This document shows, piece by piece, positions 10,277 through 61,070 of a stretch of 64,000 nt of DNA. A program made the translations under genes and the position numbers. The notes beneath the pieces were generated by a model. The model did no database searches, was not told the origin of the DNA, and saw nothing but the letters and a program-made list of their open reading frames with translations. Numbering within the stretch: the first letter of the stretch is position 1; each line of letters opens with the position of its first letter. Origin of the DNA: an uncultured delta proteobacterium. Its GTDB lineage: Bacteria > Myxococcota > Myxococcia > Myxococcales > Myxococcaceae. The stretch lies in assembly GCA_963776345.1 (NCBI GenBank), contig CAVZMH010000020.1, positions 44,626-108,625 of the forward strand, read 5' to 3'.

Positions 10277-10998
10277 TGTTTGCCTCCAGCCGTCAACGCC
10301 TCTCCCGACACGGGCGGGAGCACGTGGAGGAGCCCGGCCCGGGCCAGCGAGACGTACCGCCCGGCTCCGACCACCAGGTGGTCGAGGACGCGGAGGTGGA
10401 AAATTCTGGCACCAGCCTGCAGCTCGCGGGTCAGAGCCAGGTCGGCCTCGGAGGGCTCGGGGTCTCCCGACGGATGGTTGTGGGCGAAGATGACCGCGGT
10501 GGCCCGCGCGCCGAGCGCCGCCCGGAAGACCTCGCGGGGGTCCACGGTGCAGGCGTCCGTCGTCCCCTCCGCCACCCGCGCGTCCGCCAGCAGCACGTTC
10601 CGGGTGTTGAACGACAGGACGTGGAACACCTCGCGCCGGAGCAGCGCGATGCGGGGCGCGAGGTAGCGGTACACCTCGCCGGCGGTGCGGAGCCGGGGCC
10701 GGCCGTCCGGGGCCAGGTGGGCGCGCCGGGCGAGCTCGAGCGCGGCCAGCACCTGCGCGGCGCGCTCGCGTCCGAGGCCCGCCGCGCTGCACAGCTCCGA
10801 GGGCTCCATGCTCGCCAGCGCCCGGAGCCCGCCCGCGGCGGCGAGCAGCGACTCGCCCAGGCCGCGCACGGTGCGGCTCTTGCCGCCGAAGAGCAGGCCG
10901 AGGAGCTCGGCGTCGTCCAGCGCCCCCGGCGCCCGGAGCAGACGCTCGCGCAGCGCCTGCACCGTTCCGTCCTCGGTCTCGGAAGCCCCCCGCTCCAC
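10273..10998 (-). CDS. radC: RadC-like JAB/MPN domain protein
   Basis: HNHPSGDPEPS JAMM motif. N-terminal helix-hairpin-helix-like region. Confidence 0.85.
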   Translation of the reverse strand: MERGASETEDGTVQALRERLLRAPGALDDAELLGLLFGGKSRTVRGLGESLLAAAGGLRALASMEPSELCSAAGLGRERAAQVLAALELARRAHLAPDGRPRLRTAGEVYRYLAPRIALLRREVFHVLSFNTRNVLLADARVAEGTTDACTVDPREVFRAALGARATAVIFAHNHPSGDPEPSEADLALTRELQAGARIFHLRVLDHLVVGAGRYVSLARAGLLHVLPPVSGEALTAGGKQ

Positions 10999-11085
10999 GG
11001 TCCCGGAAGGGGAGCAAGCGACGTGCCCGGGGCCCCCTGTGAACGAAGGTTCAGCGCGCCGTCCGGAGTGCCGGCCGCGAGGGTC

Positions 11086-11547
11086 CTAGAACTTGGACAT
11101 CGCGAACAGCGCCTTCATCTTCTCGTTGGTATCGCGCAGGCGGGCGGAGAGCGTCCGCACCAGCGCCCAGAGCACCGAGTACGCGAGCTCCTTGTCGGTG
11201 AAGAGGAGCTGGTCCAGCGGATCCCGGCCGATGCGGAGCAGGACCGCCTCTCCCTCGTGGGCGATGGCGTCCGCCGACCGCAGGCCCTCCTCGACCACCG
11301 CCATCTCGCCGAACGCTGCCCCGGGCTCGAGGATGGCCAGCGCCTCCTCACCCATCCCCGGGAGCTGCCGGGAGATGCGGACCTTGCCCTCGACGACCAC
11401 GTACATCGACGCGCCCGGCTCGCCCTCCCGGAAGACGTACTTCCCTCGGGAGACCCGCTCGGCCTCGCAGAGGGCGGCGAGCTTCTTGAGCTGGGCCTGG
11501 CTCAACCCTTCGAACAGCGGCACCCGCGCGAGCAGGTCAAGATTCAT
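11086..11547 (-). CDS. Stand-alone cyclic-nucleotide-binding domain protein
   Basis: 153 aa. VPLFEGLS...FREGEPG...FGEMA is a cNMP-binding fold pattern. Confidence 0.8.
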   Translation of the reverse strand: MNLDLLARVPLFEGLSQAQLKKLAALCEAERVSRGKYVFREGEPGASMYVVVEGKVRISRQLPGMGEEALAILEPGAAFGEMAVVEEGLRSADAIAHEGEAVLLRIGRDPLDQLLFTDKELAYSVLWALVRTLSARLRDTNEKMKALFAMSKF

Positions 11548-11582
11548 GGCATTCGTGCCACCCTCGTAGCACTCTTTCCGCC

Positions 11583-12545
11583 ATGGCCGACACCGTGCAT
11601 GCCGTCACCATCATTGGCTCCGGGCCCGCGGGGTACACCGCCGCCATCTACGCTGCCCGGGCGAACCTCCACCCCGTCCTCTACGCCGGCGGCCCCGCGA
11701 TGGACGAGCCTGCCAGGGTTCCGGGCGGTCAGCTGATGATCACCACCGATGTCGAGAACTACCCGGGGTTCCCCGAGGCCATCACCGGCCCGGAGCTGAT
11801 GGAGCGGTTCAAGGCCCAGGCCGAGCGGTTCGGGACGGTCATCCACATGGAGAACGTCACCCAGGTGGACCTCTCGGCCCGGCCCTTCACCCTCCAGGAC
11901 GAGAGCGGACGCACCCTGAAGACCCAGACGCTCATCATCGCCACCGGCGCCTCGGCGAAGTGGCTGAACGTGCCCGGCGAGGCCGAGTACACCAACCGCG
12001 GCGTCTCGGCCTGCGCCACCTGCGACGGCGCCTTCTTCAAGGGCGAGGAGGTCTTCGTGGTGGGCGGCGGGGACACCGCGATGGAGGAGGCCACCTACCT
12101 CGCGAAGATCGTCAAGAAGGTGACCGTGCTGCACCGCCGTGACCAGTTCCGGGCCTCGAAGATCATGCAGCACCGGGTGCTCGGCAATCCGAAGATCTCG
12201 GTGGTCTGGAACACCGTGGTCGAGGAGGTCCTCGGCGACGGCAAGCGGATGACCGGCGCCCGGGTGAAGAACGTGAAGACGGGCGAGGTGATGACCCTGA
12301 GCGCTGGCGGGCTGTTCGTGGCGATCGGCCACCGGCCGACCACCGGGTTGTTCGAGGACTGCCTCGAGACCCACGAGACCGGCTACCTCAAGACCGTGCC
12401 CGGCAGCACCCGGACCAGCGTGGACGGCGTCTTCGCCTGTGGCGACGTGCAGGACTCGGTGTACCGGCAGGCGGTCACCGCTGCCGGAACCGGCTGCATG
12501 GCCGCCATCGAGGCCGAGCGCTTCCTGGTGGAGCACGGGGCGTGA
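11583..12545 (+). CDS. trxB: Thioredoxin-disulfide reductase
   Basis: [15 protein letters not shown] motif, CATCDG redox-active site and a [15 protein letters not shown] motif. Confidence 0.92.
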
Positions 12546-13726
12546 CTTCCCCCGGGAAGCCGGCCACCGTGGCCATCCACGCCGGGAGCCGGCTCCCGGA
12601 GAGCAGCGCGGTTCCCATCACCCCGGCGGTCTACCCGGCGGCGGTGAGCTGGTTCGACTCGGCCGACGAGCTCGACGCCGCGCTGGACGGCAAGGACTTC
12701 GTCTACACCCGCATCCGCGGCGAGAACTCGGTGCTGCTCGAGGAGGCGGTGGCCGCGCTCGAGGGCGCCGAGGCGGCGGCGGTCTTCGGCAGCGGCATGG
12801 CGGCGCTCCGGGCGGTCTTCGACGCTCAGGGCCTCGCCCCTGGCGACCGGGTCGTGCTGCCCCTCGACGGCTACGGCGCCACGCGGGCGCTGTTCAAGCG
12901 GCTGGCCGAGCAGCAGCGGGTCGAGCTGCATGCGCTGAAGCTCAGCGACGGGTCGGCGACCGAGCGCATCGCCGCCATCCGTCCGAAGCTGGTCCTCGCC
13001 GAGAGCATGACCAACCCGCTCCTCGCGGTTCCGGACCTCCCGGCCATCGCCCGGGCGGCGCACGGAGTGGGCGCGGCGTTCGTCGTCGACGGGACGTTCA
13101 CCTCGCCGGTGCTCCAGCAGACGCTGACCCAGGGCGCGGACTACGCGCTGCACTCGACCACCAAGTGGATCAACGGGCACTCGGACGCGACCGGCGGCGT
13201 GGTCTCGGGGACGCGGGCGCGCATCGAGCCGCTCCGTGGCGCCCGGGTGCTCGAGGGTGCCCTGCTCGGTCCCTTCGAGTCCTGGCTCACGCTCCGTGGC
13301 CTCCGGACGCTCCCGGTCCGGATGGCGGCTCACTGCACGCACGCGCTGCACGTGGCCCGGCGGCTCCGCGAGAGCGGGCGCATCGCCCGGGTCGTCTACC
13401 CCGGGCTCCCGGACCATCCGGACCACGCGACCGCGCGCGGCCTGCTGAAGGGCGGGTTCGGCGGGATGGTGGCCTTCGAGATCGCCGGCGCGGGCCGGGC
13501 CGAGTCGTTCCGCTTCCTCGAGGCGCTGGAGCTCTGCCGCCCGGCGCCCTCGCTCGGCGACGTGACGACGCTGGTGATGCATGCGGCCAGCGCGAGCGCC
13601 CGGCGGCTCACGCCCCAGGAGCGCGCGGCGGCCGGAATCGGCGAGAACCTCATCCGCGTGTCGGTGGGACTCGAGGATCCGGACGACATCGCCGAGGACC
13701 TCCTCCAGGCGGTGGGCCGGCCATGA
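12542..13726 (+). CDS. Cys/Met-metabolism PLP-dependent enzyme (cystathionine gamma-synthase/lyase family)
   Basis: [15 protein letters not shown]-lysine motif. GTGA overlap with trxB. Confidence 0.8.
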
Positions 13727-14166
13727 AGATGGTGGACGTCGGCGGCAAGGAGCGCACCGAGCGCGTGGCGGTGGCCACGGCCCGGCTGCGGATGCAGCCC
13801 GAGACCGTCGCTCGCATCCGGGACGGCCGGGTGGAGAAGGGCGACGTGCTCGCCGCGGCCCGGCTCGCCGGGGTGATGGCCACCAAGCGCACCCCGGACC
13901 TGATTCCCCTCTGTCATCCCATCGCCCTCACCGGGGTGACGGTCGAGGTCACCCTGGACGAGGAGGGCGCGCGCGTCCGGGCCGAGGTGAGGACGCTCGA
14001 CCGCACCGGCGTGGAGATGGAGGCCCTGACCGCGGCGGCGACCGCGGCGCTGACCATCTACGACATGGTGAAGAGCGTGGACCGGGGGATGGTCATCGAG
14101 TCGGTGCAGCTGGAGCACAAGGCCGGCGGCCGCACCGGCACCTGGGACCGCGGCGCGGCAGGGTAG
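13723..14166 (+). CDS. moaC: Cyclic pyranopterin monophosphate synthase MoaC
   Basis: MKMVDVGGK...[14 protein letters not shown]...[10 protein letters not shown] is MoaC-typical. ATGA overlap with the upstream gene. Confidence 0.9.
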
Positions 14167-14178
14167 GGCGCACGCTCG

Positions 14179-14940
14179 ATGTCCATCGCGCCGGTGGAGG
14201 TCGCCCTCGACGTCCTGCTCGGCGCGGGCATCGGCGTCCTGAGCGGCATCGTGGGCATCGGCGGCGGGCTGTTCATCATCCCGCTGCTCGGGGTGGCGTT
14301 CGGCCTGACGCAGCAGCGAGCGCAGGGGACGGCGCTGGTGATGGTGGTGCCGAACGTGCTGCTCGGGCTGTGGCGGTACGCGCGCTACCGCGGCTTCGAC
14401 CCCCGGGGGGCGCTGGTGCTCTCGCTCTCGGCGCCGGTGTTCACCTACCTCGGCGCCCGGATCGCCACCGCGGCGCCGTCGAGCACGCTGCGCATCGCCT
14501 TCGCCGGATTCATGCTGGCGCTGGCCGTCTTCTACGGGCTGCGGAGCCGCTCGGCCGAGCTCCGCATCGACCCCGAGGCCCGGCTGCCCGGGCGGCTGGC
14601 GGTGGCGCTCGGGGTGGTGGGCGGACTCGTCTCGGGGCTGTTCGGCGTGGGCGGCTCGCTGTTCGCGGTCCCGCTGATGACCACCCTCCGGGCGATGGGG
14701 CAGGCCACGGCGCAGGGGATGGGGCTGGCCCTGGTCGCGCCGGGGACGGTGGTGAACCTCTGGGTGTACGGGCGGGCCGGGAACGTGGACTGGGTCCGCG
14801 GGATCGCGCTCGCGGTGGGCGGCGTGGCGACGATGCCGGTCGGGGTGGCCATCGCCCACCGGCTCCCCGAGCGCGCGCTCCGCGCCATCTTCGGAGCGGT
14901 GGCGCTGGTCAGCGCGGTGGGGCTGTTCCTCCGTCGCTGA
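14179..14940 (+). CDS. TauE/SafE (DUF81) family anion exporter membrane protein
   Basis: 253 aa, multi-TM, with duplicated GIGGG / GVGGS helices. Confidence 0.8.
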   Translation: MSIAPVEVALDVLLGAGIGVLSGIVGIGGGLFIIPLLGVAFGLTQQRAQGTALVMVVPNVLLGLWRYARYRGFDPRGALVLSLSAPVFTYLGARIATAAPSSTLRIAFAGFMLALAVFYGLRSRSAELRIDPEARLPGRLAVALGVVGGLVSGLFGVGGSLFAVPLMTTLRAMGQATAQGMGLALVAPGTVVNLWVYGRAGNVDWVRGIALAVGGVATMPVGVAIAHRLPERALRAIFGAVALVSAVGLFLRR

Positions 14941-42938: not shown

Positions 42939-43347
42939 CGGAGACACTGTGCCGCGGCCGCCCTGGTCTCGACGGCTGCGGGCCTGAGAGTCTTCGACCA
43001 GGACCTCGGGCGCGGCCGCGGACGACACTGTGCTGCGGCCGCCTGGTCTCAACGACTGCGGGCCTGAGAATCTTCGACCAGGACCTCGGGCGCGGCCGCG
43101 GACGACACTGTGCTGCGGCCGCCCTGGTCTCGACGACTGCGGGCCTGAGAGTCTTCGTCCAGGACCTCGGGCGCGGCCGCGGACGACACTGTGTCGCGGC
43201 CGCCCTGGTCTCGACGACTGCGGGCCTGAGAGTCTTCGACCAGGACCTCGGGCGCGGCCGCGGACGACACTGTGCTGCGGCCGCCTGGTCTCGACGGCTG
43301 CGGGCCTGAGAGTCTTCGACCAGGACCTCGGGCGCGGCCGCCCTGAC
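42939..43347. repeat. Tandem array of five 80-81-bp units of the GCGGCCGC repeat family
   Basis: Units start at 42940, 43020, 43100, 43181 and 43262, each with a few substitutions. Each unit has two NotI-type GCGGCCGC sites and a CCTGGTC/GACCAGG inverted pair. The array fills the whole DHH-maf spacer. Confidence 0.92.
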
Positions 43348-43914
43348 CTACAGGAGCGGGAACCCGCGGGCCCGGAGCATCCGGACCACCGGGAGCATCG
43401 GGAGCCCCTGCACCGAGGTGCGGTCGCCCTCGAGCCCGGAGACCAGCGCCTGCCCCCGGCCCTCGATGCGGTAGCCGCCCGCGCAGCCACGCCACTCCTC
43501 GGTGTCGAGGTAGCGCTCCAGCTCCTCGGCGGTGAGCGGGTGGAAGCGCAGCGTGACGACGTCGAGCTCGAGCTGCTCGTCGCCCCCGCCCACCAGCGCC
43601 ACGGCGGTGAGGAGGCGGTGCGCCCGGCCGAGCAGCGCCCCGAGCTGGGCGCGCGCCGCGTCCCGTGACTCCGGCTTGCCAAGCACCCGGCCATCCACCT
43701 CGGCGAGCTGGTCGGCGCCGAGCACCAGCGCGTCCGGGCGTCGCTCGGCGACGGCGCGCGCCTTGCGGAGCGCGAGCATCCGCACCGAATCCTCGATCCC
43801 CGTTCCCTCGGGGAGGTCCTCGTCCACGCCCGGCGCCTCGACGGAGTAGGGCACCCCGAGCGCGTCGAGCAGGGCCCTGCGGGCCGGCGAGGTGGAGGCG
43901 AGGAACAGGCGCAT
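43348..43914 (-). CDS. maf: Maf-like nucleoside triphosphate pyrophosphatase
   Basis: MRLFLASTSPARRALLDALGVPY...GADQ...GGYRIEG pattern. Confidence 0.85.
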   Translation of the reverse strand: MRLFLASTSPARRALLDALGVPYSVEAPGVDEDLPEGTGIEDSVRMLALRKARAVAERRPDALVLGADQLAEVDGRVLGKPESRDAARAQLGALLGRAHRLLTAVALVGGGDEQLELDVVTLRFHPLTAEELERYLDTEEWRGCAGGYRIEGRGQALVSGLEGDRTSVQGLPMLPVVRMLRARGFPLL

Positions 43915-44032
43915 CGCGGAGCAGGCTCTCTCACACGGTGCCGCGGCGCGCTGCAAGCTTTGCCGACCCACCGGGCCGGGGATGACCCACCCCCTCCGGT
44001 GCGGGGATCCCCGGAACTCGGGACCTTGGTGA

Positions 44033-44049
44033 TGGGACAATGGTTTGCA
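44033..44049 (+). promoter_or_regulatory. Possible sigma-54 promoter ahead of the pilus minor-pilin cluster
   Basis: TGGGACAATGGTTTGCA has GG-N10-GC spacing and a TTTGCA -12 element, but an imperfect -24. It overlaps the TTG start of the longest ORF. Confidence 0.3.
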
Positions 44050-44800
44050 CTGTTCGGCGGTCGCGATGGACCGGCGAATGGCAAGGAGGCGGAGGCACCC
44101 GCGCGGCGCGACGCTCCTGCTGTCGCTCGGGGTGGTGACCTTCCTCACCCTCGGCGCCATCACCACGCTGAACCTGATCACCGCGCAGTCGGATCCCGCG
44201 GGACAGGATCGCCGGGCAAAGGAGGCCTTCTTCGCTGCGGAGGCCGGGCTGGCCGAGGCGCGGGAGTGGCTCCGGCTGCAGACCGCGGCCATCCCCTCGC
44301 CGCAGCCGACCAACGCCATCCTCGCCGCGCTGGCCCCGGCCACCGACGTGGGCGGCTCGACCGACCCCTGGTACCAGATTCCGCTCGGCAACACGCCGGA
44401 TGCCTGGGTGGCCTACACGCTCTCCCGTGCGCCCGACGCCAATGGCGCCCAGGCGCTGGACACCGGGGTGACCGCCGCCGGGCTGGAGCTCACCGCCTCG
44501 GACGGCACGCAGTACCTGGCGTACCCTGACGCCTCGCGCGTCACCTACCGCGTCTTCCTCCGCGACGACGACGACGGCGACGGCGACCCCACGGTGGACT
44601 CGAACGGCACCGTCTGGCTGGTGGCGGTGGGCCAGGTGCAGGTGGGCCTCGGCGTCCCGGTGCAGGCGGTGGTGCGCGCGCTGGTCCGTCCCGGCACCGG
44701 CGCGGTGGGCACCGGCTACAGCTACTCCGACAAGATCTGGGACCCCGTTCACCTGAACGAGAACGCCCCCATCAACGCCAACACGACCACCAGTCTCTAG
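44045..44800 (+). CDS. PilX-like pilus assembly protein (PilX_N domain)
   Basis: RGATLLLSLGVVTFLTLGAITTL...AFFAAEAGLAEAREWL. The true start may be the ATG at 44066 or 44078. Confidence 0.65.
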   Translation: MHCSAVAMDRRMARRRRHPRGATLLLSLGVVTFLTLGAITTLNLITAQSDPAGQDRRAKEAFFAAEAGLAEAREWLRLQTAAIPSPQPTNAILAALAPATDVGGSTDPWYQIPLGNTPDAWVAYTLSRAPDANGAQALDTGVTAAGLELTASDGTQYLAYPDASRVTYRVFLRDDDDGDGDPTVDSNGTVWLVAVGQVQVGLGVPVQAVVRALVRPGTGAVGTGYSYSDKIWDPVHLNENAPINANTTTSL

Positions 44801-44809
44801 AGGCCCGAC

Positions 44810-45265
44810 GTGCTTCGCATCGCTCTTGTGGCATCCATCATCGTCTCGCTGCCCGCGCTCGCCGCGAACGCCACCGTGGGCGCCGAGGCGTTCGCCTCGG
44901 GCTGCAGTCGCTGCCACGCCGCGACGCAGGTGCCGGCGGGCGCGACCGAGCCGCATGCCGACCGGCGGAACGCGCGCCCCGGCGCCGGGCCCGACCTGAC
45001 CGAGGCGCTCATCGCCCAGGGCTACGACAAGGTCCGGGCGTGGATCGAGAAGCCGGGTCGCGCGAACCGCGAGACGACGTGCGACACGCGGCAGGTCCCG
45101 CCGGCGCAGCTCGACGACCTGATGGCCTATCTGGTCTCCCAGGTCGTCCCGGCACAGCCGTCGCGGAAGGAGCGGCTCCGCGGGAAGCTGTCCGAGGAGC
45201 AGGCCCGGGCCGCGGCGGCCGGAGTCCCGACCGCACGCGCACGGAAGGGGGGGAGGCGGCCGTGA
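44810..45265 (+). CDS. Secreted monoheme c-type cytochrome
   Basis: Signal peptide plus a CSRCH heme-binding motif. Class I-like C-terminal helix (LDDLMAYL). GTG start. Confidence 0.75.
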   Translation: MLRIALVASIIVSLPALAANATVGAEAFASGCSRCHAATQVPAGATEPHADRRNARPGAGPDLTEALIAQGYDKVRAWIEKPGRANRETTCDTRQVPPAQLDDLMAYLVSQVVPAQPSRKERLRGKLSEEQARAAAAGVPTARARKGGRRP

Positions 45266-48200
45266 AGCGCACGATGATCGCCGCGGTCGCGCTGCTCTCC
45301 TGCGTGGCGATGGTGGCCCACGCAGGCAGCCTGGCCGCGCTCTGCCAGGACAGCCTGGCCCAGAATCGCCAGCCCGACTTCGCCGATGGCGGGTTCCAGA
45401 GCCTGAAGACGGTGCAGGTGGTGGGGACCCCGGCGGTGCTGCGGCTGAACACCAACCTCGACGTGCTGAACCCGCAGAAGATCCAGCTCCCGTTCGATCA
45501 GAACGTGAGCATCAGCTACGTCTACGAGGCCGGTGGAGCGGGCTGGGCGCTGGGATGGCTCTACGCGGACGACCTGGTGAAGCGCGGGTACCTGGACGCG
45601 AACGGGAACCTGCTCGACTCCGACGGCGACGGCATCCCCGACTTCCACGAGGACATCTACAACCTCTCGCAGAACCGGTACGTCGGGAAGTACCGCAAGT
45701 GCGGCGCCACGCCGCCCACCTTCACCTGGAACGGGGTGAACCTCGTCGAGCCGGAGATCGCCACCGACTCCTGTGGCACCACCTTCGGCACCACCAGCAA
45801 GACGGCCATCCTGGCCGACGGCGGGATGGGCTCGGTCTCGGGCTGGCAGGTGGGGAAGGCCAGCGGGAGCACGCCCACCACCCCGACCGTCGAGTACACC
45901 GACAACGGGCTGTACGCGCGGATCCCCAACCTCCTCGAGCCCGCGGACCCGCTGAACGGGGGCCTGGGCCTGGGCCACCTCATCTTCCTCAACGCCGACG
46001 ACGACAGCGACACCACCACCAAGGCGCTGGTCCCGGTCGCGGACATCTCGAGCAAGGTGGACGGCGTGCCGGACTACGACGTCAGCGCCTACGACGGGAA
46101 CGGCCGGCTGCTCCCCGCGGGCAGCAATCCCGATCCCGGCGTGTCGCTCTACGACCGCACGCTCAACCTGGGCACGCTCCCGGGGAGCAGGGAGATCATC
46201 TTCTACCTGGTGGTCTACTACACCAGCCAGGGTCAGGCCGGCTGCCTCGGCCGCGTCGGCGGCGTCTGCAAGCTCTGGCTCAACACGCCGGTCGTCGTCC
46301 ACTTCAGCCGCACCGACCTGAACATGGACGAGAACCTCAACACCGCGAACCCCGCGGCCACGGTGGACATCGGGTGCGGGTATCCGAATACATGTAGTCT
46401 GGACGGTGGGACGTATACCGGCTGGCTCGACTCGGCGACCCTGACCCGCCTCGCGGCGCCGGACGGCGGCTACGGGCTGACCATGCCTCACGAGGTGGTG
46501 AGCGTTCCCCGTTCCAGCACCAACCGGATGCCGCACGTCATCGTGGGCGCGCCGAGCACCGATCCCTTCCGGTGGATCATCGGGTTCGAGGACCTGAGCG
46601 GCGGCGGTGACCGCGACTTCAACGACGTGGTCTTCCAGATCAACAAGAGCAACGGCGGGACGGTGACCTCGGGGATCGTGTCGAACGACATCAGCCCCAC
46701 CGACGTCCAGAACCTCACCATCACCAACATCCGCTTCAAGAAGGACGACAACGCCATCTACCAGGCCAGCGGTCCGGCCAACGCGTGCAGCGGGCCGCCC
46801 AAGGCCAGCATCGACTACTACGTCGCGGTGGACTGCAAGGTCTGCGCGAGCGGGGTCTGCACCGAGAACCCCAACCCCTCGTGGACGCGCGTGCCGCTGC
46901 CGGCGGGCAACCCGTCCGAGGTGACCTTCAACGTCCTCGACCTCGGCTTCACCGGCTCGCAGCTCTGCTGGCAGGCGCGGCTGTCGAGCCCCAACCAGTA
47001 CTGCCAGCCCACCATCAACAGCGTCTCGGTGGGCTATCAGGCGGTGCGCTCGGGTTCCTACTCGCGGTCCAGCCTCTCCACGGTGGGCAACGCCTTCGTC
47101 TACGGGACCTACGAGACCCCGGGACAGGGCTGGACCGGCCCCTGGCCCACCAGCCCGCCGGCGCCGTCCACGCGGAACTACGACGGCAAGCCCGACCTGA
47201 GCACCCGCGGGCACCTGTACCTCAAGTCCATCTACGATCCGGAGGCGCCCACGCTGACTCACTCCGTGCAGCGCTGGGACTCGGGCGGACAGCTGGTCAC
47301 CGACCTCACCGCCGGCTCGCCGTCGAGCCGCCGGCTCCTGACGGTGGACTCGACCGGGAAGATCGCCGCCCTCTCCACGGTGAACGCGGCCGAGGACCTG
47401 CTCCTCCCTGCGACCCAGCTCTGCCGGGTGAATGGCGGAAGGTACGTCTTCGACCTCAACGGCGACGGGGTCTGTACCTCGAGCGATCGCGACTTCGTGA
47501 AGGACTGGCTCTATGGCTGGGAGGACAACCAGCCGCCCGGGCCGGTGGGCAGCCGCCGCGCCTGGCCGATGGGCGGGGTGAACCTCTCCACCCCCGCGGT
47601 GGTGGGGCCGCCGACCTATCCGTCCTGGTATTACAACACCACCGGCGACGAGCAGACCGCGTTCCAGACGCGGTTCGTCAGCGGCGTCCTCAACGGGAGC
47701 CCGCTCTCGGCGCGCAACACGTACACCTACGTCAACACCAGCAGCGGCATGCTCCACGCCTTCGCCGCGGGCCACTACTCGCCGGCCACCTCGGACCCGT
47801 GCCTCGGGCAGCGCGGCACCACCCTGTACCGGGGCTTCTTCCAGCCCACCGGCGCCTGCGTCCCCCCCCCCGGCATCAATCCCCGGAACTACGGCACCGG
47901 CGCCGAGCGCTTCGTCTTCCTGCCGCGGAGCCTGCTCGGGCGGTACGTGAACAGCTACGTCGGGCCCACCATCACCGGCGCGCCGTCGGCCTCGCTCGAC
48001 GCCTCGCCGGCGGTGGCGGACGTGGACCTCGGCGGCCTGGGCTCCAGCGTGCTGCCCTGGACCATCAGCAACAAGCTGGGCCAGGGGGCCAAGACGATGC
48101 TCGTCTCCGCCGCCGGCCGGGGCCAGAGCACGGTGTTCGCGCTCGACATCACCCAGCCCGATCTCGACACCTACCCCATCTTCCAGTGGGAGTTCGACAT

Positions 48201-49260
48201 GAACTCGGTCAACAGCGCGTTCGCCAGCGCGCGGCTGGGCAACCCGAGCGCGCTCCTGCCGGACACCAACGGGACGCGGCATGCGCCGGTGGTGGCGCGG
48301 GTGGACTTCGGGAGCAGCGGCTCCGCCGACTGCGGGACCGGCACGGGGAGCTGCCGGAAGTGGGTGGCGGCGGTGGCGACGGACTACCTCCCCGCCTCGG
48401 GGTACGCCGGCGCCATCTACCTCATCGACCTCACCACCGGCGCGCCGGTGGTGGTGAACGGGAAGCAGGTGGGGGTGGTGCCCCTGGAGCAGGGCGAGGG
48501 CGTCGGCGGTGAGCCGGCCTACGGCGACGCCACCCCCGGAGACGGCACCTCCGACGTTCTCTACGTGCCCTCGACCAGCGGGCGGGTGTACCGGCTGAAC
48601 CTGAGCAAGCGGGACGAGAGCCAGGCGCTCGGCTCGCGCATTCCCAAGTGCCTCATCGCCAGCGCTCCGCTCGCGGTGGGCGGGGCCGACGGGCCGCTGG
48701 AGGAGATCCACTCCGGTCTGGTCTCCCGGCCGGGCCCGATCACCGACGGCAAGTCCACGGTGATGTTCTTCTTCGGCACCGCGGACAGCCCGGACGATCC
48801 GTACGACGCGACCGCCTCGAGGTACTACGTCTTCGGCTACACCGATCCCGATCCGCTCGGCACCTGCCCCAGCGCGCCGGTGGCTCCCACCTGGAGCCAG
48901 GCGCTCGACGCGGGACAGCGGGTGTGGGGCGGGGTCTCGCTGGACTCGAACTACGTCTACGTGACCACCGCGGTGGGCAACGCCGCCGACGCCTGCAACC
49001 TCAGCAACAACGTGAGCGGCAAGTATTACAGCTTCGGCCAGGGCGACGGAACGGCGCAGTCCGGCAGCGGCAAGGACCTGGGCGGCCACTCGCTCAACTC
49101 TCCGGTCATCTACGACGGCCACGTGCTCAGCGTCAGCGTCACCGGGCAGGCCACGGCCTACGGCGACGCCGCCTGGAACAACAAGACCAACTTCACGCCA
49201 GCCACCGCGCCGAGGGTCATCCTGTGGGACGTGTCGACACAGTCGCAGCTCCCCAAGTGA
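45262..49260 (+). CDS. pilY1: PilY1/PilC-like tip adhesin with an N-terminal DUF4114-type domain
   Basis: Signal peptide, DSDGDGIPD Ca-loop-like motif and IGFEDLSGGGDRDFNDVVFQI (DUF4114 signature). The C-terminal propeller-like region has SSGMLHAFAAG and GRVYRLNL. GTGA overlap with the cytochrome stop, with GGAGG upstream. Confidence 0.75.
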   Translation: MKRTMIAAVALLSCVAMVAHAGSLAALCQDSLAQNRQPDFADGGFQSLKTVQVVGTPAVLRLNTNLDVLNPQKIQLPFDQNVSISYVYEAGGAGWALGWLYADDLVKRGYLDANGNLLDSDGDGIPDFHEDIYNLSQNRYVGKYRKCGATPPTFTWNGVNLVEPEIATDSCGTTFGTTSKTAILADGGMGSVSGWQVGKASGSTPTTPTVEYTDNGLYARIPNLLEPADPLNGGLGLGHLIFLNADDDSDTTTKALVPVADISSKVDGVPDYDVSAYDGNGRLLPAGSNPDPGVSLYDRTLNLGTLPGSREIIFYLVVYYTSQGQAGCLGRVGGVCKLWLNTPVVVHFSRTDLNMDENLNTANPAATVDIGCGYPNTCSLDGGTYTGWLDSATLTRLAAPDGGYGLTMPHEVVSVPRSSTNRMPHVIVGAPSTDPFRWIIGFEDLSGGGDRDFNDVVFQINKSNGGTVTSGIVSNDISPTDVQNLTITNIRFKKDDNAIYQASGPANACSGPPKASIDYYVAVDCKVCASGVCTENPNPSWTRVPLPAGNPSEVTFNVLDLGFTGSQLCWQARLSSPNQYCQPTINSVSVGYQAVRSGSYSRSSLSTVGNAFVYGTYETPGQGWTGPWPTSPPAPSTRNYDGKPDLSTRGHLYLKSIYDPEAPTLTHSVQRWDSGGQLVTDLTAGSPSSRRLLTVDSTGKIAALSTVNAAEDLLLPATQLCRVNGGRYVFDLNGDGVCTSSDRDFVKDWLYGWEDNQPPGPVGSRRAWPMGGVNLSTPAVVGPPTYPSWYYNTTGDEQTAFQTRFVSGVLNGSPLSARNTYTYVNTSSGMLHAFAAGHYSPATSDPCLGQRGTTLYRGFFQPTGACVPPPGINPRNYGTGAERFVFLPRSLLGRYVNSYVGPTITGAPSASLDASPAVADVDLGGLGSSVLPWTISNKLGQGAKTMLVSAAGRGQSTVFALDITQPDLDTYPIFQWEFDMNSVNSAFASARLGNPSALLPDTNGTRHAPVVARVDFGSSGSADCGTGTGSCRKWVAAVATDYLPASGYAGAIYLIDLTTGAPVVVNGKQVGVVPLEQGEGVGGEPAYGDATPGDGTSDVLYVPSTSGRVYRLNLSKRDESQALGSRIPKCLIASAPLAVGGADGPLEEIHSGLVSRPGPITDGKSTVMFFFGTADSPDDPYDATASRYYVFGYTDPDPLGTCPSAPVAPTWSQALDAGQRVWGGVSLDSNYVYVTTAVGNAADACNLSNNVSGKYYSFGQGDGTAQSGSGKDLGGHSLNSPVIYDGHVLSVSVTGQATAYGDAAWNNKTNFTPATAPRVILWDVSTQSQLPK

Positions 49261-49775
49261 GGAGCCGGCGCGGGACCACGCTCATCGAGGTGATGGCCGC
49301 CATGGGCGTGATGGCCATCGGCATCGCGGCGATCGGATCGCTGGTGCTCGCGGCCAGCTCCCAGAACCGGCGGACCCTGGCCATGGCCCAGGCGGAGGCG
49401 GTGGCCCAGCGTGAGCTGGAGCGGGTGCTGGCGCTGGGATGCAGCAACGGGAACTCGGACACCGCCTTCTGCGACAACGTGCGCGCCCTGGACCGGACCG
49501 GGTACGACGTGGCCTGGGGCGTCTCCACGCTCCCCGGGACGGCGCCCACCGCCGCGACCCGTCCGTACCACGTGGACATCGACGTGGACGGACCGGGCGA
49601 CTGCAACGGCGCCCCGTGCTTCGAGGGCGGCGAGACCGGCGCCCCGATCCTCGCCCGGACGCTGGTGCCCGGCCAGCCGCCGCCGCGCCTGCTCAACGTC
49701 CGGGTGACGGTGAGCTGGACCGAGCGGGACCGGCCGCGGCAGGCCGTGGCGCTCCAGACGCGGGTGGCCCCATGA
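49257..49775 (+). CDS. Type IV pilus minor pilin (PilV-like)
   Basis: Prepilin leader RRGTTLIEVMAAMGV. GTGA overlap with pilY1. Confidence 0.75.
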   Translation: MRSRRGTTLIEVMAAMGVMAIGIAAIGSLVLAASSQNRRTLAMAQAEAVAQRELERVLALGCSNGNSDTAFCDNVRALDRTGYDVAWGVSTLPGTAPTAATRPYHVDIDVDGPGDCNGAPCFEGGETGAPILARTLVPGQPPPRLLNVRVTVSWTERDRPRQAVALQTRVAP

Positions 49776-50944
49776 CCCGGCGCGGCTTCACCCTCATGGA
49801 GGCCATGGTGGCCAGCGCCATGGGCCTGGTGGTCCTCACCGCGACGCTGACCGTGGGCGTGCAGCTCCAGCGCAAGGCCATCTTCGAGCAGCAGAGCTCG
49901 CTCATCCAGGGCGGGACCCAGGCGGTGGCCGAGTTCTTCGGGCCCATGCTCCAGCGCGCGGGCGAGGGGATGGGCAACGCCCGCATCAACCTCGGTGGGA
50001 ATGCCTTCGTCTACGCCATCCAGGTGACCACCGGGGACACCTTCGGCGGCTTCCCCGGCTTCTCCCCCCCGCCGCCGGCCTACGCCGACCGGATCTCCGA
50101 CTCGCTCCAGCTCCGGTGGGGCGACCCGACCGCGGTGGTCTCGCTCGGCGCCTGCGCGCTCTCCGGGGCGGACGGCGGCACGGGTGGTTTCTCCCGCGAG
50201 AGCTCGGGGCTGTGCACCGTGACCCAGGCGAGCGCGCTCGACGCCGGCACCCCGGTGTTCGTGGTGAACCCGGACCTCCCGGAGGCCTGCTCGCAGATCG
50301 TCACCGGCCCGGCCGGGTCCGAGACCCCCGGGGTGCACGCGGCCACGCTGCCGGCGACGCCCTACCCGAACTCGACCGACGCCCCGGCGGGCGACGGCTG
50401 TGCGATGGGCGGCTCGCTGTTCGCCACCCCGCGAACGGTGGTGATGCCGGCCGGCGGCGTCACCTTCCGGGTCAACTGGGAGAGCGGCGCACCGGTGCTC
50501 GAGTACACCAACCGGGCGCCGCCGCTTCCCGGCGACACCTGGACCGAGGTGAGCCGCGACGTGGAGCAGATGACCGTCGCCCTCGGAGTGCACGACCTCA
50601 CCGCGGACGCGGGAGTCCCCATGACCTGGTACCCCGGCGCGGACGGGGGCGTGCCGATCGACCAGTGCCTGGGCGCGAGCCCGAGCGGCAGCTGCGCGGT
50701 CCCGGGCGGGATGGGCCCTCCGGCGCTGGACCCGACGACCTGGGACGCCCTGATGCGGCGGGTGCGGGCGGTGGAGGTCCGGCTGGTGGCGCGCTCGAGC
50801 CGGCGCGAGCGGCCCGATGCCATGGCAGCGGACGGCGGGAGCTTCGTCCGCGACGAGGACGGGAACCCGGACGATGGCTTCGTCCGCCGGACGCTGGTGC
50901 TGACGCTCGCCCCGCGAAACTACCAGCTGGCGGGGAGCTTCTGA
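49772..50944 (+). CDS. Type IV pilus minor pilin (PilW-like)
   Basis: Prepilin leader RRGFTLMEAMVASAMGL. 390 aa. ATGA overlap. Confidence 0.75.
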   Translation: MTRRGFTLMEAMVASAMGLVVLTATLTVGVQLQRKAIFEQQSSLIQGGTQAVAEFFGPMLQRAGEGMGNARINLGGNAFVYAIQVTTGDTFGGFPGFSPPPPAYADRISDSLQLRWGDPTAVVSLGACALSGADGGTGGFSRESSGLCTVTQASALDAGTPVFVVNPDLPEACSQIVTGPAGSETPGVHAATLPATPYPNSTDAPAGDGCAMGGSLFATPRTVVMPAGGVTFRVNWESGAPVLEYTNRAPPLPGDTWTEVSRDVEQMTVALGVHDLTADAGVPMTWYPGADGGVPIDQCLGASPSGSCAVPGGMGPPALDPTTWDALMRRVRAVEVRLVARSSRRERPDAMAADGGSFVRDEDGNPDDGFVRRTLVLTLAPRNYQLAGSF

Positions 50945-51531
50945 TGACCCGCCGGGCATTCACCTTGCTCGAGGCGATGACCACCTGCGCGATCATCGCC
51001 GTCCTGGCCGCCCTGGCGATGGAGAGCTGGGATTCGGCCATCGCCCGGGCGCGGGCCAACGACGCGGTGATGGGCGTCTACGGACAGCTGCTCGCGGCAC
51101 GGAAGATCGCCCGCACGCACAACCAGCCGGTGCGGCTGGCGATGGTGCCGGACGGGGGCGTCACCCTCGCCCGCTGGGAGCGGCTCCCGTGTGACAACGA
51201 GGTCTTCGGGCTCGGCTGCCCCTCCGCCGCCTGCGCCACCACCGACGCCTGCGGCGGAGGCTCGTGCCCCTGCCGGGACACGGGCGACTGGGTGACGGTG
51301 CCGTCCACCGTGGACCTCAGCGCCTGGGCGGGTCTGTGCTTCCGGGGCGGCACCGGTCAGGCGGTGCCCCGGGTGGCGGGGGTGGGCGACTGTCTGGCGC
51401 CGCCCCCTGCCGGCGCGCTCGGCCTCCGGGCCGGCATCGCCCATCAGAACGACCAGCAGCTGCTGCTCGAGCCGCTGAGCGGGCAGCCGAGGCTGCTGTC
51501 CTGCAGCACGGGGGACGCCGGCTGCAACTGA
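50944..51531 (+). CDS. Type IV minor pilin (FimT/GspH-like)
   Basis: Prepilin leader RRAFTLLEAMTTCAIIAVLAALA. TGATG overlap. Cys-rich C-terminus. Confidence 0.7.
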   Translation: MTRRAFTLLEAMTTCAIIAVLAALAMESWDSAIARARANDAVMGVYGQLLAARKIARTHNQPVRLAMVPDGGVTLARWERLPCDNEVFGLGCPSAACATTDACGGGSCPCRDTGDWVTVPSTVDLSAWAGLCFRGGTGQAVPRVAGVGDCLAPPPAGALGLRAGIAHQNDQQLLLEPLSGQPRLLSCSTGDAGCN

Positions 51532-51587
51532 GGGTCGCGCGGGCGGACCTGGACTGACGGGGTCGGGTCGTCTGTTACATTGAGAGG

Positions 51588-52796
51588 ATGCTTCGCCGGC
51601 TCGGTCTTCTCTGTCTCCTCTGCGTGGCGTCTGCCTGTCACCGGGCGACGCCGGCGGAGGCCCCGGCGAAGAGCGCGGCCACCAACCCCGGCCTCCCCAC
51701 CGCCCCCAGCCACCACCCGTCGCGCCCGCCCCCGGTGGAGCCGCTGGCGGTGTGCGACGCGCGGGGTCTCGACCCGCTCGACGCGGCGCGGGCGGCGTAC
51801 GACGCCCGGGAGTACGACCGGGCGCTCTCCTGCGCCGCCGAGGCCTCGGCGAAGGCGCCCGACGAGCCGGACGCGCACAGCGAGCGGGGCGCGGCGCTCT
51901 CGGCGCTGGGCCACTTCGAGGAGGCCAAGCTGGCCTATGCACGGGCGCTGGCGCTCGACCCGGAGCACCTCGATTCGCTGCTCGGCGCGGCGCACCTCTA
52001 CGGGGTGAGCCTCCCCAGCACCCGGGACAACGACGAGCTGGCGTTCGTCTACGCCGAGCGGGGGCGGCAGCTGGCCCGCGAGGCCGGCGACGGTGAGCTG
52101 GCCGCGCAGTTCGCCCTGCTCGGGGCCATGGCCGCCAACGACCTCGGCGAGGCGCAGGTGGCGCTCGAGCGGAGCGAGGAGGCCGGCGAGGAGCGCGCCA
52201 GCGACGCGGACGTGGCCTACGAGCGGGCGGTGGCGCTCTTCGAGCTGTGCCGCTTCAAGGAGGCGCAGGAGGCCTTCACCCGGCTGCTCTCGGACGACGA
52301 GCACGGGGCGCACGCCCACCAGCACCTCGGGCTGCTGCTGGAGCGGGAAGGGAAGCTGACCGAGGCCGAGGCGCACCTCCGGAAGGCGCACCAGCTGTCG
52401 CCGGAGGACTTCCCGGCGCCGCAGCTCCTCTCGGAGAAGGAGTTCCGCCGCGAGGTGGACCGGGCGCTGGCCGGGCTGCCGGCGGACATGCGGAAGGACC
52501 TCGGCGGCATCCCGGTGACGGTGGAGGACATCCCCAAGGCCGAGGACCTCCTGGAGGGCGACCCGCCGCTGTCTCCCACCATCCTCGGGCTCTTCCGCGG
52601 GCCGCCCATCGGCGAGTCGTGCAGCGCGGACGACGGCCCGGTGTGCCGCTCGGTGGTGGTGTACCGGAAGAACCTGGCCCGCGCGGTGAGCTCGCGCGAG
52701 GAGCTGGAGGAGCAGATCCGGGTGACGCTGCTCCACGAGATCGGGCACCTCCGGGGCGAGGACGACCTGGAGCTCGCCGCGCGCGGGCTCGAATGA
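51588..52796 (+). CDS. Lipoprotein with TPR repeats and a C-terminal zincin (DUF1025-type) metallopeptidase motif
   Basis: LLCVASAC lipobox, TPR region and C-terminal LLHEIGHLRGEDD. Confidence 0.7.
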   Translation: MLRRLGLLCLLCVASACHRATPAEAPAKSAATNPGLPTAPSHHPSRPPPVEPLAVCDARGLDPLDAARAAYDAREYDRALSCAAEASAKAPDEPDAHSERGAALSALGHFEEAKLAYARALALDPEHLDSLLGAAHLYGVSLPSTRDNDELAFVYAERGRQLAREAGDGELAAQFALLGAMAANDLGEAQVALERSEEAGEERASDADVAYERAVALFELCRFKEAQEAFTRLLSDDEHGAHAHQHLGLLLEREGKLTEAEAHLRKAHQLSPEDFPAPQLLSEKEFRREVDRALAGLPADMRKDLGGIPVTVEDIPKAEDLLEGDPPLSPTILGLFRGPPIGESCSADDGPVCRSVVVYRKNLARAVSSREELEEQIRVTLLHEIGHLRGEDDLELAARGLE

Positions 52797-59650: not shown

Positions 59651-59711
59651 GGCATGTAGGCCGGGCCCGCACAGGCGGGGTCGCTCGCCCGGGTGCTAGG
59701 CTTCCGGGGGC

Positions 59712-61070
59712 GTGGAACTCAACGAGATCCTCCAGGTCGCGCTGCGCGGTGGCGCGAGCGACATCCATCTCAAGGCCGGTCTGCCCCCGATGTTCCGGGT
59801 GGACGGCTCGCTGGTCCCCCTGAAGGACGGCAAGCGCCTCCCTCCCGAGGAGGTGGCGCGCATGGCCTTCGGGATCATGAACGAGTACCAGCGGGACAAG
59901 TTCAAGAACTCCAACGAGGTGGACCTGGCCTACGGCGTCCCCGGGCTCGGCCGCTTCCGCGTGAACGTGTTCCAGCAGCGCGGCACGCTCGGGGCCGTGC
60001 TCCGCGTCATCCCCTTCAAGGTGATGACCATCCGGGATCTCCTCCTGCCCCCGGTGCTCGAGACCATCGCGCTCGAGGAGCGCGGCCTGGTCCTGGTCAC
60101 CGGCACCACCGGCTCGGGCAAGAGCACCACGCTGGCGGCGATGATCGATCACATCAACGCCAACGAGACCGATCACATCATGACCATCGAGGATCCGATC
60201 GAGTTCCTCATCCGCGACAAGCGCTCGATCGTGAACCAGCGAGAGGTGGGGGTGGACACCGTCTCCTTCAGCCAGGCGTTGAAGAGCGCGCTCCGCCAGG
60301 ACCCGGACGTGATCCTGGTGGGCGAGATGCGTGACCTCGAGACCATCGAGACGGCGCTCACCGCCGCCGAGACGGGCCACCTGGTCATGTCCACGCTCCA
60401 CACCCTGGACGCCACCGAGACCATCAACCGCATCGTCTCGGTGTTCCCGCCCTACCAGCAGAAGCAGGTGCGGCTGCAGCTGGGGAGCGTGCTCAGGGCG
60501 GTCATCTCCCAGCGGCTCGTCCCGCGCGCCGACGGCAAGGGCCGCGTCGCCGCGGTGGAGGTGCTGAAGGCCACCGCCCGCGTCCGCGAGCTGATCGCGG
60601 ACAAGGACCGCACCAAGGAGATCCCCGACGCCATCGCGCAGGGTCACCAGACCTACGGGACCCAGACCTTCGACCAGTCGCTGATGAACCTGGTGCGCCA
60701 GAACATCATCACCTACGACGAGGCGCACCGGCAGGCGACCAACCCGGACGACTTCGCGCTCCGGTTCAGCGGCATCAGCGCCACCAGCGACTCGCGCTGG
60801 GACGACTTCGAGGGCACCCAGGACGGGAACTCGGCCCCGGGCAGCGTGGCCTTCGCCCAGCGCGGCGCCCCTCTGCCCGCGCCGGCTCCGGGCCCGGCGC
60901 CGTCCCCGGCCGCTGCGGCCCCCCGGCCACCCGCCCCGGGCGCCGGGACGCCGCTCGGGCGCATCAACCCCACCACTCCGAAGCCCGGGGCACAGCCCGC
61001 GGCGCGCCCCGCCGGAGGGTCCACCGGCCTGCCCGCGGCGGACGACGACTTCCACATCGAGCGGTTCTGA
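59712..61070 (+). CDS. pilT: Type IV pilus retraction ATPase PilT with a ~90-aa Pro/Ala-rich C-terminal extension
   Basis: GTTGSGKSTT Walker A, DPDVILVGEMRD Walker B, AAETGHLVMSTLHT. GTG start. Tail APGPAPSPAAAAPRPPAPG...DDDFHIERF. Confidence 0.9.
   Translation: MELNEILQVALRGGASDIHLKAGLPPMFRVDGSLVPLKDGKRLPPEEVARMAFGIMNEYQRDKFKNSNEVDLAYGVPGLGRFRVNVFQQRGTLGAVLRVIPFKVMTIRDLLLPPVLETIALEERGLVLVTGTTGSGKSTTLAAMIDHINANETDHIMTIEDPIEFLIRDKRSIVNQREVGVDTVSFSQALKSALRQDPDVILVGEMRDLETIETALTAAETGHLVMSTLHTLDATETINRIVSVFPPYQQKQVRLQLGSVLRAVISQRLVPRADGKGRVAAVEVLKATARVRELIADKDRTKEIPDAIAQGHQTYGTQTFDQSLMNLVRQNIITYDEAHRQATNPDDFALRFSGISATSDSRWDDFEGTQDGNSAPGSVAFAQRGAPLPAPAPGPAPSPAAAAPRPPAPGAGTPLGRINPTTPKPGAQPAARPAGGSTGLPAADDDFHIERF

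Follow-up and report, generated by a model that had tools for sequence, protein, structure and literature searches.

A probable TfcP orthologue in a PilY1.1-type minor pilin operon of an uncultured member of the Myxococcaceae

Introduction

Why would a gene for a secreted heme protein lie between two genes for type IV pilus components? The question is raised by a 64,000-nucleotide stretch of DNA from an uncultured delta proteobacterium assigned to the Myxococcaceae (GenBank assembly GCA_963776345.1, contig CAVZMH010000020.1, forward-strand positions 44,626 to 108,625), referred to here as the window, in which a small cytochrome c gene stands directly upstream of pilY1 in a cluster of minor pilin genes. 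We consider it very probable that this cluster is a PilY1.1-type ("cluster_1"-type) operon for the priming and tip complex of a type IVa pilus, and that the heme protein is an orthologue of TfcP that stabilizes PilY1 and does not carry electrons.

A cytochrome encoded in, and translationally coupled within, a minor-pilin/PilY1 operon is already known, having been dissected experimentally in 2022 and surveyed in 2026. In Myxococcus xanthus, cluster_1 has the order pilX1-tfcP-pilY1.1-pilV1-pilW1-fimU1, and the extra open reading frame (ORF), Mxan_0363, was named TfcP (Herfurth et al., PNAS 2022, PMC8833165). The same study demonstrated by reverse transcription PCR (RT-PCR) that cluster_1 is an operon, and reported that the tfcP ORF is conserved in the minor-pilin/PilY1 clusters of other Myxococcales. 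M. xanthus TfcP is made with a type I signal peptide; its cytochrome c domain contains a single CxxCH motif and, where the distal Met would stand, Cys91, and a short Pro-rich stretch leads on to a charged C-terminal helix. It binds heme with His/Cys ligation, and Cys91 was shown to be the distal ligand (PMC8833165). The protein promotes calcium-dependent stability of PilY1.1 and is needed for that stability and for piliation only at low calcium (PMC8833165). The later survey found tfcP immediately upstream of pilY1.1 to be the conserved organization of the PilY1.1-type cluster only, with the genes translationally coupled (PMC13190605).

To this the window adds what would be a divergent TfcP orthologue (32% identity) from an uncultured lineage, a CxxCH/distal-Cys signature that is invariant across ~55 clusters at 50% identity, metagenomic sequences included, and a natural variant of the PilY1 calcium loop beside TfcP, which offers a possible comparative test of the model that TfcP stimulates calcium binding.

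Results

Gene organization of the cluster

Translation, Pfam and BLASTP confirmed the six-gene order that an original prediction, made from the DNA letters, had given for this region: PilX-like, cytochrome, PilY1-like (1332 aa), PilV-like, PilW-like and FimT/GspH-like. The genes and the sites within them are as follows (a slash marks a predicted cleavage site).

44066..44800, + strand: pilX-like minor pilin, 244 aa from a probable ATG at 44066, with TTG at 44045 as an alternative start
44810..45265, + strand: probable tfcP orthologue, GTG start, a 151-aa noncanonical monoheme cytochrome c (Pfam, BLASTP, profile)
44903..44917, + strand: codons of the heme-attachment motif C32-S-R-C-H36 (translation; the motif occurs in 56/56 family sequences that cover the column)
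45080..45082, + strand: codon of Cys91, which is predicted to be the distal axial ligand of the heme and follows C32 by 59 residues (context TTCDTRQ)
45262..49260, + strand: pilY1 of PilY1.1 type, GTG start, 1332 aa (DUF4114, identity to M. xanthus PilY1.1, profile match to 3HX6)
45616..45642, + strand: N-terminal D119-S-D-G-D-G-I-P-D127 of PilY1 (regular-expression search)
46567..46644, + strand: DUF4114 core, PilY1 residues 436-461, ...GFEDLSGGGDRDFNDVVF... (Pfam match)
48526..48555, + strand: variant C-terminal calcium loop D1089-A-T-P-G-D-G-T-S-D1098 of PilY1 (alignments)
49257..49775, + strand: pilV-like minor pilin, GTG start, 172 aa, leader RRG/TTLIE (Pfam N_methyl, BLASTP)
49772..50944, + strand: pilW-like minor pilin, ATG start, 390 aa, leader RRG/FTLME (weak Pfam, BLASTP)
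50944..51531, + strand: fimU/GspH-like minor pilin, ATG start, 195 aa, leader RRA/FTLLE (Pfam N_methyl, BLASTP)

From the cytochrome gene on, each stop codon overlaps the following start codon, in the sequences GTGA, GTGA, ATGA and TGATG, so the junctions and the translational coupling are exactly as had been claimed. The spacing between pilX and the cytochrome gene is 9 nt and contains GAGG. Position 44033, at which the prediction had begun the region, is only a stop-to-stop ORF boundary upstream of pilX.

Because the guanine-plus-cytosine (GC) content of the window is ~72%, mechanical ORF lists are full of shadow ORFs, and we used GC by codon position to tell real genes from artefacts. Third-position GC was 0.91-0.96 in all six plus-strand genes (0.94 in pilX). 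Three long antisense ORFs overlie the cluster (45127-49122, 49217-50959 and 43931-44956, all on the minus strand; 1331, 580 and 341 aa, respectively), and in these GC was highest at codon position 1, with a third-position value of only 0.62-0.77. On this codon-position pattern we rejected them as genes and took them to be the shadow ORFs that come with high GC. On either side of the cluster lie housekeeping genes unrelated to it: upstream maf, transcribed divergently, and downstream a gene for a TPR/zincin protein. The six genes therefore stand as a discrete unit.

The cytochrome has the signature residues of TfcP

By BLASTP, the window cytochrome matched M. xanthus TfcP at 32% identity over 114 aa (E = 4e-9). 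The two proteins are of similar length (151 versus 153 aa) and share the same three-part architecture. The first part, a signal peptide at residues 1-19 (ALA/AN; MLRIALVASIIVSLPALA/ANA), was judged by inspection from its basic residue, hydrophobic core and A-x-A, and the N-terminus is matched in 21 relatives. The second is a cytochrome c domain to which Pfam assigned Cytochrom_C (25.8 bits against a cutoff of 21.3). The third follows a Pro-rich linker at ~113-117 and is a basic C-terminal extension, residues 118-151; the tail from residue 114, PAQPSRKERLRGKLSEEQARAAAAGVPTARARKGGRRP, has 11 K/R to 3 D/E, and a helix is predicted at 119-136 by AlphaFold2 (AF2).

The heme-attachment motif C32SRCH36 is the sole CxxCH in the protein and is invariant within its clade. 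The Cys residues lie at 32, 35 and 91 in the window protein and at 31, 34 and 91 in M. xanthus TfcP, and C32, C35, H36 and C91 are invariant among the homologues. All 57 aligned short family sequences have Cys in the Cys91 column, usually as T-x-C-D-T/P-R (TGCDTRL in M. xanthus). No conserved Met or His was present near Cys91 in this 57-sequence alignment, and at M105, the one Met that the window protein has in its C-terminal half, just 7 of the 57 have Met. In a weak alignment to cytochrome c6, Cys91 falls within 2 residues of the axial Met. M. xanthus TfcP and the window protein differ in that the window clade has a loop of its own, NARPGAGPD, which is invariant within the clade.

The ORF is more than a chance reading frame: it has 29 close homologues, and CxxCH and the second Cys are invariant among the homologues. 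When 1.84 billion representative proteins were searched with a profile of the window clade, 64 matched at E <= 0.001; one of these, P0161, closely resembles M. xanthus TfcP (E = 3.4e-18). When ten distant representatives of the family were looked up, one was from a "Myxococcaceae bacterium" metagenome-assembled genome (MAG) and one was named "cytochrome c2". A genome-scan match in a gammaproteobacterium (L006, 36% over 72 aa) was rejected as a false positive: a 1449-aa helicase gene on the other strand encloses it, and it has no match to the TfcP hidden Markov model (HMM). L006 gives no evidence of TfcP outside the Myxococcota. NCBIfam held no specific model for TfcP, for PilX or for this PilY1.

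The AF2 model of the cytochrome had a mean confidence (predicted local distance difference test, pLDDT) of 69, falling below 50 at residues 86-89 beside Cys91. When it was compared with the PDB using Foldseek, none of the top 47 matches fell outside the c-type cytochromes and cytochrome c domains, and most were to cytochrome c6, mitochondrial cytochrome c or the NirS domain. Their probabilities were at most 0.97 and their E values at least 0.13; the profile-to-PDB sequence matches were cytochromes c6. This modeled structure fits a cytochrome c fold but by itself proves nothing. Like the class I c-type cytochromes (c6, c2, mitochondrial c, the NirS domain), which the PDB searches by sequence and by structure ranked highest, the window protein has one CxxCH near the mature N-terminus, a helical fold and the C-terminal helix pattern (D/E)xL(x)(Y/F)L. 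It differs from them in the invariant Cys that replaces the distal Met, in its extra charged C-terminal helix, and in a context that is pilus-related rather than respiratory or photosynthetic; its M. xanthus orthologue also differs, in having a midpoint potential (Em) of ~-310 mV.

We also observed that TfcP diverges faster within the clade (64-73% identity, L001-L005) than do PilY1 (87-89%) and PilX (84-90%), the changes being concentrated in the signal peptide and the C-terminal tail.

The position of tfcP upstream of pilY1 is conserved

We compared the window with M. xanthus cluster_1, retrieved through the PilY1 homologue P0070, and found that the six proteins have one-to-one positional counterparts in the same order at 32-41% identity. 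Around tfcP and pilY1 the two clusters have much the same stop/start overlaps, whereas the flanks differ (Maf and the TPR/zincin gene in the window, Mut7-C and IleRS in M. xanthus).

Nearer relatives were found in MAGs labelled as uncultured Myxococcaceae or "delta proteobacterium" (L001-L005). In 5/5 of these loci pilX is followed by tfcP, and the full pilX-tfcP-pilY1-pilV-pilW-fimU order is present in L001-L004, with L005 cut off by the end of its contig just beyond tfcP. Compared with the window, identities were 84-90% for PilX, 64-73% for TfcP, 87-89% for PilY1, 78-83% for PilV, 75-85% for PilW and 68-85% for FimU. In all five loci, stop and start codons overlap at each junction that was read; these did not include the pilY1 start of L003. 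Across the homologue searches, the proteins closest to those of the window were 83-89% identical for PilY1 and 58-74% identical for TfcP, the exception being one 98% identical TfcP from a sequencing-run assembly.

The same arrangement was seen in M. xanthus (L007/L008), in a genome labelled M. stipitatus (L009, L012), in an Archangium MAG (L010), in C. coralloides (L013) and on a metagenome contig (L014). In L009, L010 and L012-L014 the small ORF matched the TfcP HMM (E from 1e-35 to 1e-49), carried CxxCH and the distal Cys, and overlapped the start of pilY1 at its end. Taken over every fetched locus of the nearer PilY1 group, a TfcP gene stood directly upstream of pilY1, and it overlapped or abutted the pilY1 start wherever this was read. 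The position is thus conserved across at least 5 named taxa and several MAG lineages. The original prediction had proposed comparative synteny to see whether the cytochrome is kept between pilX and pilY1 in relatives; it is kept there in all fetched loci of this group, the opposite of being absent from orthologous clusters. This is the organization described for other myxobacterial PilY1.1-type clusters (PMC13190605), which we also saw in Corallococcus, the M. stipitatus-labelled genome and Archangium; the window clade differs from these in being uncultured and known from metagenomes only.

The one fetched locus of the more distant PilY1 group (L011, C. macrosporus CP022203) had no gene between pilX and pilY1, and this cluster is probably of PilY1.2 type. 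Directly downstream of its fimU, at 11853-12182, is a gene for a 109-aa, canonical-looking monoheme cytochrome c with CxxCH and an MMKP Met pair at 80-81 (Pfam Cytochrome_CBB3/Cytochrom_C).

Two further observations were made in these loci. The genome labelled Myxococcus stipitatus (GCA_021412625.1) has two TfcP-bearing PilY1 clusters ~400 kb apart on contig JAKCFI010000003.1, L009 (4519-5004) and L012 (3516-4001), whose PilY1 proteins measure 1337 and 1433 aa. L012 shares synteny with M. xanthus cluster_1, with Mut7-C and IleRS in its flanks. M. stipitatus has been described as a single-cluster species (PMC8833165), so either TfcP clusters can be duplicated or strains differ. In L003 (MAG MFD01872.bin.2.2) the pilY1 orthologue at 10490-14455 aligns to the window protein in seven pieces with shifting frames, which points to frameshift errors made in assembly or to a pseudogenised gene.

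PilY1 is closest to PilY1.1 and has an altered calcium loop

The window PilY1 aligned with M. xanthus PilY1.1 over its full length at 41% identity (BLASTP, E = 0.0, 911 bits). In the homologue search made with it, M. xanthus PilY1.1 (P0070) scored 1001 bits at 41% identity, against at most 745 bits and 34-37% for the group named 'pilus assembly protein PilY'; by these alignments the window protein appears closer to PilY1.1 than to PilY1.2. PilY1.1 and PilY1.2 are both DUF4114-bearing clades, and the median Cys count of clade 1.1 is 23 (PMC13190605). The window PilY1 has 23 Cys, 18 of which align with Cys of M. xanthus PilY1.1; that protein also carries DUF4114, has 24 Cys, and is longer by ~86 residues.

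The architecture comprises a signal peptide (AHA/GS), an N-terminal region with DUF4114 and a C-terminal PilY1 beta-propeller. DUF4114 (PF13448) was matched by Pfam at residues 436-461 with 33.2 bits, above the 27-bit cutoff, and the segment GFEDLxGGGDRDFND is almost invariant in 16 relatives. The PilY1 family PF05567 was not matched by Pfam with the single window sequence; relatives at 41-47% identity carry precomputed PF05567 matches. A profile of 16 relatives matched the C-terminal domain of Pseudomonas aeruginosa PilY1 (3HX6) over profile positions 781-1125 (E = 1.5e-10), with the calcium loop aligned. The GTG start of the window pilY1 is homologous to an ATG in relatives. The P. aeruginosa fimU-pilVWXY1E cluster resembles that of the window in its four minor pilins with prepilin leaders and in the C-terminal beta-propeller of PilY1, but it has no cytochrome and another gene order, its PilY1 has a vWFA rather than a DUF4114 N-terminal domain, and its calcium loop is the canonical DxNxDGxxD.

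In M. xanthus PilY1.1, the motif D1165xDxDNxxD1173 is needed for calcium-dependent stability (PMC8833165). In the window PilY1, the corresponding C-terminal loop reads DATPGDGTSD, against DLDRDGNYD in M. xanthus and DNNSDGVAD in P. aeruginosa; it is one residue longer (10), and Thr takes the D/N position. In these alignments the C-terminal domain lacks calcium-binding motif 1, Dx(D/N)xDGxxD. Calcium binding by the loop is still possible, since three of the four acidic positions can be aligned. The variant is common to 7/7 PilY1 proteins of the window clade (that of the window and six close relatives), while Dx[DN]xD[GN]xx[DE] is kept in 100 of 114 full-length PilY1 relatives. We rejected the idea that this clade is the only exception: P0086 and P0092 have a 7-residue insertion, and others read DxDxxNG or DxDxDS. 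A strict DxDxDGxxD match occurs just once in the window protein, at residues 119-127, and the loop aligned to it is rich in D/N in all relatives (for example, DSNNNGIFD in M. xanthus).

The four minor pilins

Each minor pilin of the window matched its positional counterpart in M. xanthus cluster_1 by BLASTP: PilX with PilX1 (36% identity, E = 1e-26), PilV with PilV1 (38%, E = 2e-27), PilW with PilW1 (34%, E = 1e-46) and FimU with FimU1 (37.5%, E = 2e-20). Domain models gave scores near their cutoffs. PilX matched PilX_N of Pfam at 24 bits, just below 25.5; N_methyl (cutoff 21.2) gave 23.5 bits for PilV, 20.0 for PilW, just below, and 21.4 for FimU. PilV scored 24 bits with TIGR02523 (PilV), below its cutoff, PilW had weak Pfam matches to both N_methyl and PilW, and FimU had a weak match to TIGR01708 (GspH).

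The prepilin leaders TLIE, FTLME and FTLLE, said in the prediction to be preceded by G or A, were found as described. PilV, PilW and FimU all have Glu at +5, and their -1 residues are Gly, Gly and Ala, respectively. PilX has a prepilin-like leader, G/ATLLL, that lacks Glu5.

The Ala of FimU (MTRRA/FTLLE, codon 5 at 50956-50958) sets it apart from M. xanthus cluster_1, where this residue is Gly, and from the orthologues in related MAGs, which have Gly in 4/4 (RRG/FTLLE, KRG/FTLLE, RRG/ITLLE). Prepilin peptidase normally needs Gly at -1 for efficient cleavage. The window FimU may therefore be poorly processed, or the Ala could be a sequencing or assembly variant.

Discussion

Proposed role of the cytochrome

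By analogy with M. xanthus, we infer that the window cytochrome is loaded with heme through His/Cys ligation, is periplasmic, and stabilizes PilY1. In the mechanism that we propose, the four minor pilins and PilY1 would form a short stem, priming the extension of the pilus and remaining at its tip. TfcP would be exported by Sec and would carry one covalent heme c on C32xxCH36, ligated by His36 and Cys91. With Cys91 as the sixth ligand, its potential would be very low (~-310 mV), making it a structurally "inert" cytochrome. It would remain a soluble periplasmic monomer, outside the pilus and its machine, and would take no part in electron transport. Instead, it would contact newly exported PilY1 transiently and promote its calcium-dependent folding or stabilization. 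By promoting calcium binding of PilY1 when calcium is low, TfcP would permit piliation at low environmental calcium and widen the calcium range for motility.

The original prediction had remarked that a secreted heme protein is not part of the canonical minor pilin set. The cytochrome is indeed there, but its non-canonical status is not unexplained, since it corresponds to TfcP, a characterised accessory factor of PilY1.1-type clusters.

Four points weigh against the role proposed here. Of the 114 residues that align with the characterised TfcP, only 32% are identical, and for that reason we infer, rather than observe, that the window cytochrome is functionally equivalent to it. Direct contact between TfcP and PilY1 has not been shown even in M. 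xanthus (PMC8833165). The AF2 model is mediocre, and its structural matches are not statistically significant. Lastly, the PilY1 sequence of the window clade departs from the canonical C-terminal calcium motif, by way of which TfcP is supposed to exert its effect. With the loop altered, the calcium-linked part of the mechanism may differ in the window clade, and we regard the calcium step as the least secure part of the functional inference.

Alternative explanations

That same loop allows another reading of what TfcP does. In the window clade a remodelled calcium loop stands beside a TfcP that retains every signature residue, and it may follow that the essential job of TfcP is not to promote calcium binding. 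It could instead be a calcium-independent folding chaperone, or a redox-sensing gate in which the low-potential His/Cys heme controls the stability of PilY1. We think this unlikely; were the redox gate real, pilus priming would be tied to the periplasmic redox state.

A related explanation, to which we give a low probability, is that TfcP is a sensor of redox state or of a small molecule, its His/Cys heme switching ligation with periplasmic redox, a gas or a thiol, so that PilY1 stability and piliation would be gated by redox besides, or instead of, calcium. The authors of the M. xanthus study did not rule out a signalling role and pointed out that some His/Cys cytochromes are proposed sensors (PMC8833165). 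The strong conservation of the distal Cys and the adjacent D-T/P-R in 57 sequences, which exceeds what a purely structural heme obviously needs, points the same way, and the non-canonical calcium loop of the window clade makes a non-calcium input conceivable. In M. xanthus, however, calcium at 1 mM or more fully bypasses TfcP, and TfcP itself depends for its stability on heme binding and on the distal Cys, the C91H and C91M variants being simply unstable (PMC8833165). The operon also has no partner signalling gene.

The original prediction had raised the possibility of a redox-active pilus tip or priming complex, in which the cytochrome would be a structural component of the PilY1/minor-pilin complex and would make an electron-conducting tip, for instance for extracellular metal reduction. 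The gene does lie inside the operon, translationally coupled to pilY1, and the heme-attachment motif is present. M. xanthus has already been the subject of experiments of the kind proposed there, and what they showed speaks against a redox or tip role: TfcP is soluble and periplasmic, it was found neither in purified pili nor at the pilus machine, an active TfcP-sfGFP fusion was not polar, and Em was ~-304 to -320 mV (PMC8833165). Since M. xanthus TfcP is periplasmic, of low potential and absent from pili, we found no support for the idea. According to the same authors, electron conduits of the outer membrane use canonical His/His or His/Met hemes (PMC8833165), whereas the window protein has a single heme motif with a His/Cys signature. 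It also lacks a pilin-like N-terminus and so has no evident route into the filament. The lineage had further been called rich in metal respiration, for which we found no support: the genomes most closely related are MAGs that bear the label Myxococcaceae or 'uncultured delta proteobacterium', among cultured bacteria the nearest are Corallococcus, Myxococcus and Pyxidicoccus, and these nearest relatives are not known metal respirers. We therefore hold a redox-active tip to be very improbable.

Scarcely credible is an unrelated respiratory cytochrome c carried as a passenger between pilX and pilY1, to which the generic Cytochrom_C assignment and the c6 matches in the PDB would be no obstacle, but against which stand the conserved position directly upstream of pilY1, the overlap or abutment with its start, the replacement of the axial Met by an invariant Cys, and the finding that deletion of tfcP in M. 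xanthus abolishes cluster_1-dependent motility without a growth defect (PMC8833165).

Other features of the window

A promoter and terminator scan of 43300-52000 returned no plus-strand sites, a scan that is uninformative at 72% GC and for non-E. coli promoters, and tRNA and Rfam scans of the window gave no matches. A PilT/PilU-family type IVa pilus ATPase is encoded at 59700-61070 on the plus strand, ~8 kb downstream of the operon (TIGR01420, 475 bits). The protein has 456 aa, its C-terminus extending ~100 residues beyond the 343-position family model, and it may belong to the PilT paralogues that myxobacteria typically have.

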